Assembly: GCA_042852035.1 (NCBI GenBank)
Contig: BAAFHK010000003.1
Span: 60,001 to 92,000, forward strand
Origin: Candidatus Saccharimonadota bacterium
GTDB lineage: Bacteria > Patescibacteriota > Gracilibacteria > BD1-5 > UBA2023
Length of the DNA stretch: 32,000 bases
Direction of reading: 5' to 3'
Shown: piece by piece, positions 3,404 to 11,131 of the stretch
Position numbering within the stretch: the stretch's first letter is position 1
Layout of the letters: each line of letters starts with the position of its first letter
Position numbers and translations under genes: made by a program
Notes under the pieces: model-generated
Told to the model about the DNA's origin: nothing
The model's database searches: none
The model's input: only the letters and a program-made list of their open reading frames with translations

Positions 3404-3433
3404 AAAAAACCTCAGAAATTTCTGAGGTTTTTT
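3404..3433. terminator. bidirectional rho-independent terminator downstream of fusA
   Basis: A perfect palindrome, aaaaaacctcagaaa/tttctgaggtttttt, centred at 3418/3419. It lies 12 nt after the fusA stop and has A and T runs on both sides. Confidence 0.8.
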
Positions 3434-3444
3434 GCATCATCATT

Positions 3445-5589
3445 TTACTCTTCTTCGTCCTCCTCAAACTTCACTCCGCGTTCAGCACGGATTTTCTCTG
3501 TAATATTATTTGGAGTATGAGCATAGTGAGCAAATTCCATAGTGTAAGTTGCACGACCTTGACTCATAGATCGGAGATCGGTTGCATATCCAAACATTTC
3601 TGAGAGTGGAACATGAGCGCGGAGGATTTTTGCCATACCACGTTCAGTCATTTCAGTAATTTGACCACGCTTTGAGTTGAGGTTTCCGAGAACATCACCC
3701 ATATACTCTTCTGGAGTATTTACCTCCACGAGCATAATTGGTTCGAGAAGCACTGGACGAGCCTTCTTTGCAGCTTGGCGGAATGCCTTGATGGCAGCCA
3801 TTCGGAACGCAAGTTCATTCGAGTCAACTTCATGGTAGCTACCGAAGGTAAGCGTTGCCTTTACATCAACGATAGGGTATCCAGCGATAATACCGCGTGA
3901 GTAGGCAGCCTTGAGCCCCTTCTCCACTCCTGGAATATACTCACGAGGAACGACACCACCGACAATTTTGTTGAAGAATACATTTTCTTCCTTAAGTCCT
4001 TCTGGATCTGCTGCTCGCATTTCTGGAGTGATTGGTTCGAAAGACATGACGACATCACCGAATTGTCCACGACCACCTGATTGCTTTTTATGAACTCCAC
4101 GTTCGTCAATTACTGCTTGAGTTATAGATTCACGGTATGCAACCTGTGGAGCACCAACATTTGCTTCAACCTTGAATTCACGCTTCATACGATCAACCAA
4201 GATTTCGAGGTGAAGTTCACCCATACCCGCCATGATTGTTTGACCTGTTTCAGCATTTGAAGTCACACGGAATGATGGATCTTCTTCAGCAAGCTTATTG
4301 AGAGCCATACCCATCTTTTCTTGATCAGCCTTTGTCTTTGGTTCAACAGAAATAGAAATCACAGGTTCTGGGAAGGTCATACGTTCGAGGATAATTGGCT
4401 TATTCTCATCACAGAGAGTATCACCAGTTCGAGTGTTCTTGAGACCGATTACTGCACCGATATTCCCTGCTGGGATTTCATCGATTTCTGTACGATTGTT
4501 GGCGTGCATTTGGAGGAGACGTCCGATACGTTCCTTTTCTCCACTTACTGTATTTTGTACGTAAGAACCTGACTTGAGAGTTCCTGAGTATACACGAACG
4601 AAAGTAATTCGTCCAACGAATGGATCTGTCATAATCTTAAACGCAATTACTGCGAGTGATTCATTTGGATCTTGCTTGAGTACAATTTCCTTATTCTCAT
4701 CGTCAACATCAGTACCAGTAATTGTACCGTTGTCGATATCGAGAGGAGAAGGAAGGTAGTCTACAACTGCATCGAGAACGAGTTGTACACCCTTATTCAT
4801 AAGAGCAGAACCACAAAGAAGTGGGTATACACCATCTGAAATAACTCCCTTTCGAAGTCCAGCCTTGATTTCTGCCTCAGTAAGAGTTCCTGTCTCAAAA
4901 TATTTATTCATAAGTTCATCGTCTTGCTCTGCAGCTTTCTCGATAACTTTTGCATGCCATTCTTCAGCAAGAGCCTTCATATCTTCAGGGATTTCAAATT
5001 CGATCACTTTTTCTCCCATAGCACCCTCGAATCGGTATGCCTTCATCTTTACGAGATCGATAATACCAGCAAAATCATTCTCCTGCCCGATAGGAAGTTG
5101 TACTGGGATAACTTTATTTCCAGCGAGACGCTTTACGATAGATTCGTAAGTCATCATGAAGTTTCCACCGGTCTTATCCATCTTATTGGCAAAGGCGATA
5201 CGAGGAACTCCGTATTTATCTGCTTGCTTCCATACTGTTTCTGACTGTGGTTCTACTCCTTGTGAAGAATCAAAAACCGCAACAGCACCATCAAGAACAC
5301 GCATAGAACGCTCTACTTCAATCGTAAAGTCAACGTGCCCCGGAGTATCGATAAGATTGAGATCAACTCCTCTCCATGAAGTCGTAGTTGCCGCAGAAGT
5401 GATAGTAATACCACGTTCTTTTTCTTGTTCCATCCAGTCCATAGTTGCTCCACCATCGTGTACCTCACCAATCTTGTGATTAATACCAGTATAGAAAAGA
5501 ATACGTTCAGAAGTGGTGGTCTTACCTGCATCGATATGGGCTGCGATACCGAAGTTACGAAGATTCTTGAGATCTTTAGAAATCGCCAT
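3445..5589 (-). CDS. fusA: translation elongation factor G (714 aa)
   Basis: Intact ORF in the track with GTPase motifs [17 protein letters not shown] and NKMD and full EF-G domain architecture. It has a TAA stop and contains no in-frame TGA at all. Confidence 0.97.
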
Positions 5590-6574: not shown

Positions 6575-7948
6575 ATGCAATCTCTTTTTTCTCATTCTAT
6601 CACTCCGCTCGCCTCACTGCTTAGACCCGAAAGGATTGATGACCTCGTCGGACAATCACATCTTATCGGACCAGGAAAATCAATAAGAAAATTCATCGAG
6701 GCAGGGAAAATTCCTTCACTTTTATTCTGGGGACCACCTGGTTGCGGAAAAACGAGCCTCGCGCGAGTGATTGCGAATTCTCTCGATGCTGAATTTTTTC
6801 ATCTTTCATGAGTCCTCTCGAAAAAAGAAGATGTTGTGAAGATTATTGGAAAGGCTCAGAAAAACTATAATGAATGACAGCAAACTATTCTCTTTCTCGA
6901 TGAGATACATAGGTGGACCAAAAGCCAACAGGACGTCCTCCTCCCATGGGTGGAAAAAGGAATTGTCACACTTATTGGTGCAACGACTGAAAACCCGAGT
7001 TTCACCGTGATTAATGCCCTCCTTTCGCGCTGTCGGACGTACATCCTCGAACCCATCAAGCCAAAAGAAGTCGAAGAATTTCTCATGAAGAATCTTAGAA
7101 GAATAGAAGAGAGGTATCCAAAAATAGTTTTTTTTCCTGATAATAAACAATGAAATAGGGAGTCCGAGGGGGCAATACTGTCTGAGCGAAGATGAGAGCA
7201 GAACAATGACGAGCGAAAGCAGAGTAAGAGGGAGTTTATTGGCCCCTCGGGAGCTTTTGGTACTTTTCAATCATGAAAAGTACCTTCATTTGAACTTATC
7301 GCCAAACTCGGATGAGGCGACCTCCGCAATACATTGAATCTTCTCGAAACTGCCTGTATCCTCCAAGGCGAAGGTGAGCTCACACGAGAAAATATCCTCG
7401 AAGCCTGAAGTAAATCACTCATGTATGACCAGGATGGTGAGGAACACTATAATCTCATCTCTGCGATGCATAAATCCCTGAGGGATTCAGACTGAGATGC
7501 AGCTATTTACTGGATTGGTCGTATGCTTGCATGAGGTGAAGATCCGAGATACATAGCCAGACGTATGATAAACTTTGCGAGCGAGGATGTATACAGTCCT
7601 GAGGCAATCATGCTTACCAATAGTGTCTACGAAATCTGTGAAAAAATGGGAATGCCAGAGTGTGAACTCCCGCTCATTAATGCTGCCTACTTCCTCGCTG
7701 ATCTCCCGAAAGATAATCGAGTCTATATGGCGATGCAGGCGATGCATGCCGATGTACGAGAGTTCTGAAATCTCGGAGTTCCCCTCCACTTACGCAATGC
7801 TCCAACGGAACTCATGAAGGAAGCTGGATATGGAAAAGGATATGAATATGCTCATAATCTCAAAGAGAAGAAAAGTACTCAAGAACACCTTCCAAAAGAA
7901 TTACAAGGAAGAAGATATAGAGGCTCATCTCACGAAGAAAAAAACTAG
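6575..7948 (+). CDS. rarA: replication-associated recombination protein A (AAA+ ATPase, MgsA/WRNIP type), 457 aa including a 45-aa insertion
   Basis: Track fragments 6575-6811, 6950-7153 and 7565-7768 share a frame and join across TGA codons. Motifs are Walker [75 protein letters not shown] and [25 protein letters not shown]. The stop is TAG at 7946-7948. Confidence 0.92.
7151..7285. other. 135-nt in-frame, purine- and GC-rich palindromic insertion inside rarA
   Basis: It sits where orthologues run ...PD-x4-AIAELxxGD. Here PDNKQ and [12 protein letters not shown] are separated by 45 extra codons. The long-range inverted repeat is ccgagggg (7164-7171) with cccctcgg (7243-7250). A terminal 9-bp hairpin is ggtactttt (7259-7267) with aaaagtacc (7276-7284). 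A hand count gives 32/60 G+C for 7161-7220. Confidence 0.55.
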
Positions 7949-10245: not shown

Positions 10246-11016
10246 CTAAGTTTCTATCACTTTCTTCGGAAGAGTTATTTTCTTTTCCCAGCTAGATCGA
10301 TTTGCGATTGCATTTTCTGCTGCATCTTGCTCTCATTTTTTCTTGGAAGTTCATTTCCCAACACCAAGCTCAATACTATCGAGAGTTACGGAAATTTTGT
10401 AGAGTTTATTGTGATCTGCTCATTCCTCTTCAGCAACACTATAAGTTGGAGTAATTCCCCAAATTGCTTGCGTTACTTCCTGAAGATGTGATTTTGGATC
10501 AACAAAAAGCCCCTCAGCAAGGATACGAGGAAGAGTTGAATAAATATGCTTCGCGATAAAAGCTCTCGCAACATCGAAACCCTGTTCGAGATAGATAGCG
10601 CCAATGATAGCTTCGAGAGTATTAGCGAGAATATATGGGTTCTCGTGACCCAGAGCAAGTGACTCACCACGAGAGAGTTGTATAGCACTCGAGAATCCGA
10701 GTTTTGCAGCAATTTGAGCAAGATTACGCCCACGAACGAGTGCTGATCGAATATCTGTCAATTCACCCTCAGGCTTTTCAGGGAATTCATGAAAAAGAGC
10801 CTCAGTAACTGAAACCTCGAGGACTGCATCTCAAAGAAATTCGAGTCGTTCATTTGATTCTGAGTATCCCATATGAGCCTCATTCAAGACGCTTCTATGG
10901 ATACACGCAAGGATATAGAGTTCTGAATTTTTCGGGAGAATCTGGAGAGAAGAGAGGAGAGATCCCACCTTCGCTTCAAACTCACCTCGTTCATAACGAA
11001 GAGATGGACGAGACAT
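10246..11016 (-). CDS. rnc: ribonuclease III (256 aa)
   Basis: Fragments 10831-11016 and 10420-10761 join across TGA. The RNase III signature NERLEFLGDAVL has TGA at its Gly. The C-terminal dsRBD reads GVGKGTSKKKGEQDAAENA. The stop is TAG at 10248-10246. Confidence 0.93.
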
Positions 11017-11018
11017 AA

Positions 11019-11052
11019 AAAAAGATATGAAGTGCGGATATCATATCTTTTT
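11019..11052. terminator. hairpin 1 of a twin terminator-like pair
   Basis: A 12-bp stem, aaaaagatatga (11019-11030) with tcatatcttttt (11041-11052), around a 10-nt loop. It lies between the protease stop and the rnc start. Confidence 0.6.
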
Positions 11053-11087
11053 GCAGAGGAATGTAAATTAAAACGAGTTAATCTCAT

Positions 11088-11120
11088 AAAAAAAGATATG
11101 AATCGCTCATATCTTTTTTT
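11088..11120. terminator. hairpin 2 of the twin pair; same stem sequence
   Basis: A 14-bp stem, aaaaaaagatatga (11088-11101) with tcatatcttttttt (11107-11120), around a 5-nt loop. The stem arms are identical to hairpin 1 and only the loop differs. Confidence 0.65.
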
Positions 11121-11131
11121 ATAGGTAAGAA

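Follow-up and report, generated by a model that had tools for sequence, protein, structure and literature searches.

A hairpin-forming repeat family of Patescibacteria that occupies the reading frames of code-25 Gracilibacteria, with one copy in rarA

In a 32,000-nucleotide (nt) stretch of a Candidatus Saccharimonadota genome (GCA_042852035.1, contig BAAFHK010000003.1, positions 60,001 to 92,000; hereafter the window, with position 1 as its first letter), in which TGA is read as a sense codon, the gene rarA (mgsA) carries a segment that has no counterpart in the E. coli protein. What is this segment: an ordinary protein loop, an RNA that is removed or skipped, a module that serves the host, or a mobile element that lives inside the gene? 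Under translation table 25 rarA is a single open reading frame (ORF) at 6575-7948 of the plus strand, and it falls into fragments under table 11; its product matches E. coli MgsA (PDB 3pvs) with E=6e-92 in HMMER, and in the databases it comes closest to RarA proteins of Candidatus Gracilibacteria (79% identity). In HMMER the match to 3pvs is broken into two blocks, with query residues 176-240 opposite chain residues 180-198 and about 46 extra residues between the first and second lid helices of RarA, and the region is 144 nt longer than in orthologues whose site is empty. The answer that we favour, with a probability of roughly 80%, is that the insert represents a Patescibacteria family of dispersed hairpin-forming repeats, a non-autonomous family that behaves like the Rickettsia palindromic elements (RPEs), is translated in frame, and is selected for its structure and not for its peptide.

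A preliminary description of this locus, made from the window alone, had recognised exactly 45 extra codons at 7151-7285, and these 135 nt indeed keep the frame, contain three TGA and no TAA or TAG, and encode GNRESEG...QSGKVP. The insert is real, but its extent had been underestimated, with the 5' end lying 12 nt further upstream, at 7139, so that the whole element spans about 147 nt (49 codons) and includes the interval first proposed. It is purine-rich, as had been stated (62% purine versus 54% for the gene), whereas its G+C content, put at about 53% before, is 47% when measured (gene 43.6%, window 38.7%). The RNA of the insert is predicted to fold at -47 kcal/mol (z=-5.1), and none of 200 shuffled sequences fold equally well.

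To describe the distribution of the element, we derived a degenerate core pattern from eight rarA copies (GGGGN7TGTYTGAGN{30,50}GAGTTTN{3,5}CCCC) and scanned one genome per GTDB species with it. The pattern gave 87 stretches in these genomes, where about 11 would be expected by our own chance estimate, and 86 of 89 pattern matches are members of the family, the other three being chance matches in high-GC genomes of other phyla. The 86 copies are spread over at least 43 genomes, nearly all of them Patescibacteria, and occur in at least 12 unrelated families of host genes as well as in intergenic DNA; several genomes hold three or four pattern-matching copies on different contigs, together with more diverged ones. 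A covariance model built from 72 copies recovers every pattern copy and eight more diverged copies, including second copies in ksgA and mutY, which suggests about 10-25 copies per genome of about 1.2 Mb. No Rfam family matches any copy, either at the gathering score or at E<=10. By BLAST and pattern, the family of the window's element (family A) had appeared nowhere outside rarA in the first 290 kb of Gracilibacteria loci, and from the window and these loci it looked like a rarA-specific element; the GTDB scan overturned this candidate. A separate metagenome scan for rarA loci gave 16 loci, mostly with empty sites. The genomes that hold copies are labelled Gracilibacteria, Patescibacteria group, Magasanikbacteria or Peribacteria, and some are third-party-annotation metagenome-assembled genomes labelled "Gammaproteobacteria". 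Such "uncultured Gammaproteobacteria" records (CAYZWC01, CAZAKN01, CAYMVY01, CAZCHJ01 and others) carry multiple copies of the Patescibacteria repeat, and some GTDB records titled "Peribacteria" behave as code-25 genomes; the taxonomy of these records is probably wrong.

The position of the copies relative to genes differs between the two genetic codes. In the code-25 genomes, 30 of 42 copies lie inside long ORFs, in sense orientation and in the middle of the protein, and the remaining 12 lie outside ORFs, just beyond gene ends or as the C-terminus of an ORF; no frame-breaking insertion was seen among the code-25 copies. In the code-11 genomes, all 44 copies are intergenic and none lies in an ORF. 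The host genes include cysS, dnaX, ksgA, rnr, mutY, recG, mfd, rnhB, moxR and rarA. Ten hosts are confirmed by Pfam, namely CysRS (tRNA-synt_1e), DnaX (DnaX), KsgA (RrnaAD), RNase R (RNB), an AAA ATPase (AAA), a radical-SAM enzyme (Radical_SAM), MutY (HhH-GPD), MoxR (AAA_3), RecG (RecG) and RNase HII (RNase_HII), while the remaining hosts, Mfd and RarA among them, were recognised from sequence. The RNB, RrnaAD and RNase_HII domains are each divided by the element into two Pfam stretches. Each of 34 genic copies contains between one and seven in-frame TGA codons (mean 3.8 per ~49 codons, compared with seven in the 408 codons of the rest of the window's rarA), and under the standard code each of them would truncate its host protein. 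Because the conserved motifs hold TGA in every frame that is used, read-through is available only where TGA encodes glycine, which would explain why the element is found within ORFs in code-25 Gracilibacteria and only between genes in their code-11 relatives. The dependence of read-through on TGA as glycine and the exclusively intergenic copies of the code-11 genomes are direct observations, and taken together they suggest that codon reassignment allowed the colonisation of ORFs. Every genic copy is in sense orientation, whereas the intergenic copies of the code-11 genomes have no orientation preference relative to the adjacent gene (10 lie between convergent genes and one between divergent genes); thus, we take the strict orientation within ORFs as the sign of a selective filter and not of an insertion preference.

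Across the family, the element is laid out as a 5' leader, a first helix, an invariant asymmetric internal loop (CTGTYTGAG/GAGTTT), a variable apical segment, a second helix and optional further hairpins. The ends of the window's copy were taken from alignment with 11 copies of nearly identical subtype, all from other genes and genomes, and the covariance model finds a single match in the window, at 7154-7285 (79.9 bits, E ~2e-17). The gene and the parts of its insert are as follows.

6575 to 7948, plus strand: rarA/mgsA host gene, 457 amino acids (aa) under code 25, with 10 in-frame TGA codons read as glycine.
7139 to 7285, plus strand: whole repeat element, 147 nt or 49 codons, encoding DNKQGNRES...QSGKVP.
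7139 to 7163, plus strand: 5' leader, GATAATAAACAATGAAATAGGGAGT (family consensus GATGAAAGCACAAAATGGGGAGT, from the same-subtype alignment).
7164 to 7177, plus strand: 5' arm of helix 1, CCGAGGGGGCAATA, pairing with 7237-7250.
7178 to 7186, plus strand: 5' side of the internal-loop motif, CTGTCTGAG (CTGTYTGAG in the family), with invariant columns in 72 of 72 aligned copies.
7187 to 7231, plus strand: variable purine-rich apical segment, free of TAA and TAG, in an enlarged variant also present in the ksgA copy L040b.
7232 to 7237, plus strand: 3' side of the internal-loop motif, GAGTTT, with invariant columns.
7237 to 7250, plus strand: 3' arm of helix 1, TATTGGCCCCTCGG.
7259 to 7284, plus strand: helix 2, the 3' module, a perfect 11-bp hairpin with a 4-nt loop, GGTACTTTTCA ATCA TGAAAAGTACC.

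The long-range inverted repeat that had been reported is longer than was claimed, with arms of 14 nt of which 13 are complementary, and the 3' terminal hairpin is likewise present (7259-7269/7274-7284), with a stem of 11 perfect base pairs and not 9. In the aligned copies the inverted repeats are internal, and the two ends of the element (GATGAAAGCAC... and ...AAAAGTACGGAA) do not form an inverted repeat with one another; neither the 12 aligned copies nor the rarA insertions have flanking direct repeats of the sort that a target-site duplication would leave. Neither BLAST, the pattern nor the covariance model found a second copy within the window. For the apical segment, a resemblance to a hammerhead core (GATGAG...CGAA) was considered and dropped, no Rfam ribozyme matching at E<=10.

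Both helices are supported by covariation. In 72 copies, the five consecutive inner pairs of helix 1 each show four to six Watson-Crick pair types and 10-41 double changes, while helix 2, found in about 80 of 96 copies, shows double changes in seven of its eight modelled pairs. In the modelled structure, 98.4% of cells are paired, compared with 80.7% in column shuffles and 48-63% when the partners are slid, and double-change cells number 268, compared with 79 in the shuffles. Mismatches are G.T and not A.C (34:3), a bias present in both code groups, which identifies the plus strand of the element as the strand that folds. Across hosts, the invariant core is read in all three frames (24, 8 and 2 copies), and even at the same rarA site the window copy and the L001 copy use different frames; what is conserved is therefore the nucleotide sequence and not the peptide. 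The peptide encoded in the window is strongly hydrophilic, with a Kyte-Doolittle hydropathy of -1.55 versus -0.34 for the rest of RarA, and antisense translations of the element would be hydrophobic. In the AlphaFold model of a database protein that is 97% identical but N-terminally truncated (P0001, mean predicted local distance difference test score, pLDDT, 68.7), the insert scores 35-53, compared with 89-91 and 80-92 for the flanking lid helices. Some code-11 copies from Magasanikbacteria (L043, L087, L072, L059 and L067) carry an additional GC-rich hairpin nested in helix 2, e.g., GGCCTGCCCGCCAGTGCCAGGCATGGCAGGCGGG, and elements therefore insert into elements.

A structure so strongly conserved, strand-specific and built around an invariant internal loop, in an element whose genic copies are all sense-oriented, would also be expected if the segment never reached the protein, i.e., if it were a small self-cleaving or self-splicing RNA, or a site of programmed ribosomal bypass. 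We consider this very unlikely. All 34 genic copies are in frame and free of in-frame TAA and TAG, which neither excision nor bypass would need, and no ribozyme or intron family of Rfam matches at E<=10. In code-11 relatives the element is intergenic and lies in either orientation to its neighbours, and in the genic copies no stop follows a take-off codon and no take-off and landing codons are matched. The T4 gene 60 type of bypass is likewise not seen here, the length being a multiple of three, with no in-frame TAA or TAG and with TGA as a sense codon throughout the genome. The spliced RNA or embedded small RNA that the preliminary description had offered as alternatives are disfavoured, since the frame is always kept and no Rfam family matches. 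Translation of the element as part of RarA accounts better for a reading frame that is retained in every genic copy.

The rarA site itself, a hotspot for insertions, was examined by aligning 120 Gracilibacteria RarA homologues and building a tree with the insert masked. In 74 of the homologues the site is empty (a 39-aa segment), and in 21 it holds a segment related to that of the window (family A), five of these with an added 3' hairpin module. Eight homologues carry an unrelated segment, VIARSE...GLLRSSQ(TGA)Q (family B), the DNA of which is a near-perfect 97-nt hairpin; another nine carry an in-frame insert of 150-310 aa with a DUF559/Vsr-like endonuclease domain (PF04480), flanked by inverted repeats of about 35 nt, and a further nine hold short odd remnants. 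The family A, family B, DUF559 and empty states are interleaved on the RarA tree, and presence or absence is patchy even among nearly identical backbones. In one such pair, L022 (family A) and L028 (family B), the rarA flanks are 92.4% and 97.3% identical at the nucleotide level, and the inserts are unrelated except for the last 18 nt; occupancy of the rarA site turns over, as this pair shows directly. The nearest relative of the window copy is found at another gene, as the second ksgA copy of genome JANPGO01 (80.5% identity, with the same enlarged apical segment), whereas identity falls to 63-64% for the elements that its closest rarA relatives carry at the rarA site itself, between flanks that are 74-78% identical to those of the window. 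Because the window copy is nearer to an element in ksgA than to elements at its own site in related rarA genes, sequence comparison points to independent arrival of different subfamilies at this site.

The same data bear on the plainest alternative, namely that the segment is an ordinary lineage-specific loop of RarA, vertically inherited and gradually diverged, in which the hairpins are incidental. Many Gracilibacteria RarA proteins do have some extra segment exactly here, and the loop at this point, which joins two lid helices, is a tolerant one. However, the same nucleotide element is found in intergenic DNA and in 12 or more genes that are unrelated, which already refutes such a loop, and the interleaved states on the tree, the unrelated inserts between flanks that are 92-97% identical, the ksgA copy as closest relative, the covarying structure and the different frames used by copies at the same rarA site all speak against it, so that this explanation is almost certainly wrong.

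The DUF559 inserts raise another possibility, that the window's element is a decayed remnant or miniature of a DUF559 endonuclease element, or the footprint of a homing endonuclease. DUF559 genes with inverted repeats do occur in frame at exactly this site, in nine of the 120 homologues, and there is a weak resemblance between the peptides (ISERWG versus LSERRG). However, the covariance model is blank at the ends of the DUF559 elements, BLAST detects no similarity, many loci with family A lack a DUF559 gene, and no intermediates between the two families were seen in the loci examined; this origin is extremely improbable. As observations in their own right, the DUF559/Vsr-like genes at the site that corresponds to 7127-7294 of the window (L027:10553-11014, L029:4281-4832 and L030:7603-8109; PF04480 with or without PF18741, in frame) are bounded by G-rich inverted repeats of about 35 nt, e.g., TCCCCCTTGATAAAGGGGGTGGGGGGGATTT, and look like a homing-endonuclease-type element that lives in frame without an intron or intein; we found no published description of an in-frame DUF559 element. 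A solo G-rich hairpin resembling the DUF559 terminal repeat, CCCCCTTTGTAAAGGGGGGCAGGGGGGATTT, lies in a tRNA U5-methyltransferase gene (L002:2600-2700, minus strand), in frame as ...TPFVKGGRGDLVPE.... Family B at the rarA site (L028:1910-2029, L007:1754-1843 and L010:1305-1394; GTCATTGCGAGG...CCTCGCAATGAC, encoding VIARSE...GLLRSSQGQ) exists in three states, the near-perfect 97-nt hairpin, a shortened version and a decayed remnant, and B-like and related 'GGATTCC..GGAATGAC' hairpins keep the reading frame within mutY, mfd and further genes (L103, L111 and L095).

Could the element instead have been adopted by its hosts, either as an mRNA structure, by which ribosomes would be paused at domain boundaries or the stability of the message controlled, or as a beneficial flexible linker peptide? 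Its insertions fall at domain junctions, e.g., where the AAA+ core meets the lid in RarA and MoxR and within RNB and RrnaAD, its structure is under selection, and its intergenic copies favour the 3' ends of genes (10 convergent versus one divergent). Against this, close relatives lack the element at the same site, the peptide is not conserved, several unrelated element families use the same rarA site, and domain junctions are simply where insertions are tolerated. We therefore regard a host function as unlikely and return to a selfish repeat of the RPE type as the preferred reading.

How close is the likeness to known systems? As far as the summaries in PMC10969869 and PMC1779305 go, the RPEs (RPE-1 to RPE-10; Ogata et al. 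2000 Science) are palindromic repeats, interspersed and about 100-150 bp long, present in many copies per reduced genome in both coding and intergenic DNA. Their in-frame insertions affect housekeeping genes of unrelated kinds and are presumed to be translated and accommodated at the protein surface; they have no associated transposase, and old copies are common to several species. The present family shares the length, the multicopy repeat in reduced genomes, the stable hairpin (z=-5.1, two covarying helices), the combination of in-frame genic and intergenic copies and insertions common to several species, and no transposase was found near the examined copies. It differs in its host phylum, Patescibacteria and not Rickettsiales, and is thus an analogue and not a member. 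Whereas each RPE family is described as encoding a conserved peptide (PMC10969869), three frames are used here and the nucleotide structure alone is conserved; read-through here requires TGA to encode glycine, and the build is modular (helix 1, invariant loop, helix 2, optional extra hairpins). The modular small mobile sequences ERIC/RU-1, BOX and the like (Delihas 2007, PMC2759123; PMC2229807) resemble it in length (about 100-170 bp), in their RNA folds and modularity, and in lying mostly at gene 3' ends and occasionally within genes with open frames, but the intragenic location that is the exception in enterobacteria and pneumococci is that of the majority (30 of 42) in code-25 genomes.

Miniature inverted-repeat transposable elements such as Correia/NEMIS of Neisseria are also small, non-coding, multicopy and non-autonomous, yet here no terminal inverted repeats or target-site duplication and, in the 8-20 kb around each copy, no cognate insertion sequence (IS) were found, and the inverted repeats are internal and covarying, in contrast to the conserved transposase-binding ends of those elements. 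IS200/IS605-derived palindrome-associated elements and REPINs, for which HUH/Y1 transposases provide mobility in single-stranded form, are closer in architecture, with two hairpins near the ends, no terminal inverted repeats or target-site duplication, folding of one strand (G.T over A.C, 34:3) and no intergenic orientation bias. Here, however, no conserved target tetranucleotide was seen at the 5' junction, the 5' flanks varying between copies, and no TnpA or RAYT gene was identified in the 8-20 kb around the copies; REP sequences, moreover, are much shorter and lie outside genes. With inteins and homing-endonuclease introns the family shares the repeated occupation of one precise site in a conserved gene, where some relatives carry an endonuclease (DUF559), but family A has no splicing motifs and no endonuclease and occurs at many unrelated sites. 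The intein residues (N-terminal Cys/Ser, and C-terminal His-Asn followed by Cys/Ser/Thr) are absent from DNKQG...SGKVP|SFE, and, as to catalytic RNAs, ribozymes and self-splicing introns included, the copies have no Rfam match at the gathering score or at E<=10 and all genic copies are in frame. The preliminary description had known of no such elements in code-25 lineages, and our searches of open-access papers and preprints found none described for Gracilibacteria, Patescibacteria or the candidate phyla radiation (CPR); the repeat thus appears to be previously undescribed, while its kind, the in-frame palindromic element, is already known from Rickettsia.

As a plausible course of events, copies would land in, or be converted into, many loci, and a genic copy would survive only if it lies on the sense strand, in frame, and in a permissive surface loop or domain linker. 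Its transcript would then be part of the host mRNA, and its translation would yield a hydrophilic and probably disordered peptide. Selection would act on the nucleic-acid structure, folded on the plus strand as two helices around the invariant asymmetric internal loop, and not on the peptide, so that the element might spread as a selfish, non-autonomous repeat and be kept in genes where its product is a harmless hydrophilic loop. Mobilisation may proceed through a single-stranded DNA intermediate handled by a HUH/Y1-type enzyme: in folding on one specific strand, in its pair of hairpins and its invariant loop, and in having neither terminal inverted repeats nor a target-site duplication, the element is most like those that such enzymes mobilise. 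The proposal of the preliminary description, a translated RPE-like palindromic element inserted in frame, is thereby supported by copy number, by the variety of hosts, by the patchy orthologues and by covariation.

Several points weigh against this reading. The GTDB scan sampled exact-pattern copies only, and whether a genome uses code 11 or code 25 was judged heuristically from ORF coverage. We infer translation from frame conservation alone. In the sequence around each copy, which covered 8-20 kb, no transposase, terminal inverted repeats or target-site duplication was found near the examined copies, nor was a transposase found between the two L031 copies, where one was looked for, and we infer mobility from distribution. 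Orthologous insertions shared across species, e.g., at the same rnr site in four genomes, could be old and vertically inherited, and template-switch mutation can by itself produce apparent compensatory changes in palindromes, with no need for selection. A bolder extension, which we put forward tentatively and as doubtful, is that the reassignment of UGA to glycine opened ORFs to the Patescibacteria repeat, that the repeat moves via a strand-specific single-stranded intermediate and an enzyme recognising the invariant loop, thus forming a new class of mobile element, and that reversal of the code has become effectively impossible; if so, code 25 would be locked in by the dozens of translated copies with TGA that each genome has in its essential genes.

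RPEs have long been regarded as a Rickettsia curiosity, and if an unrelated phylum, also with reduced genomes, harbours elements of this lifestyle, protein-dwelling selfish DNA would be seen to recur in small genomes. It would also connect a change of the genetic code with the spread of selfish DNA, with the standard-code relatives, in which copies are intergenic only, as a natural control. In practical terms, the elements add 40-60 residues to many Gracilibacteria housekeeping proteins and can mislead alignments, phylogenies and structure predictions for CPR genomes, and the covariance model would allow them to be masked or catalogued. They also break code-11 gene calls: searches with the element-encoded peptides (two word-indexed profile searches and an exhaustive HMMER search of representatives) returned only one to nine short fragments, the sole database matches to the peptide, and these are code-11 calls that end at the TGAs of the element. 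Such calls yield "hypothetical proteins" of 40-100 aa that consist of the element peptide up to the TGA (P0121-P0130 and P0131-P0136). P0129 is a fragment of rarA with a frameshift within helix 2 of an element of the window's type, which could be either a homopolymer sequencing error or a genuine pseudogene.

Two further repeats were observed elsewhere in the window. At 11015-11122, the 16-mer ATAAAAAAAGATATGA occurs twice in direct and once in inverted orientation, together with 12-nt partial copies, within about 110 nt. A perfect palindrome of 15+15 nt at 3404-3433 (AAAAAACCTCAGAAA/TTTCTGAGGTTTTTT), directly downstream of the minus-strand gene fusA (3445-5589), looks like an intrinsic terminator that works in both directions.

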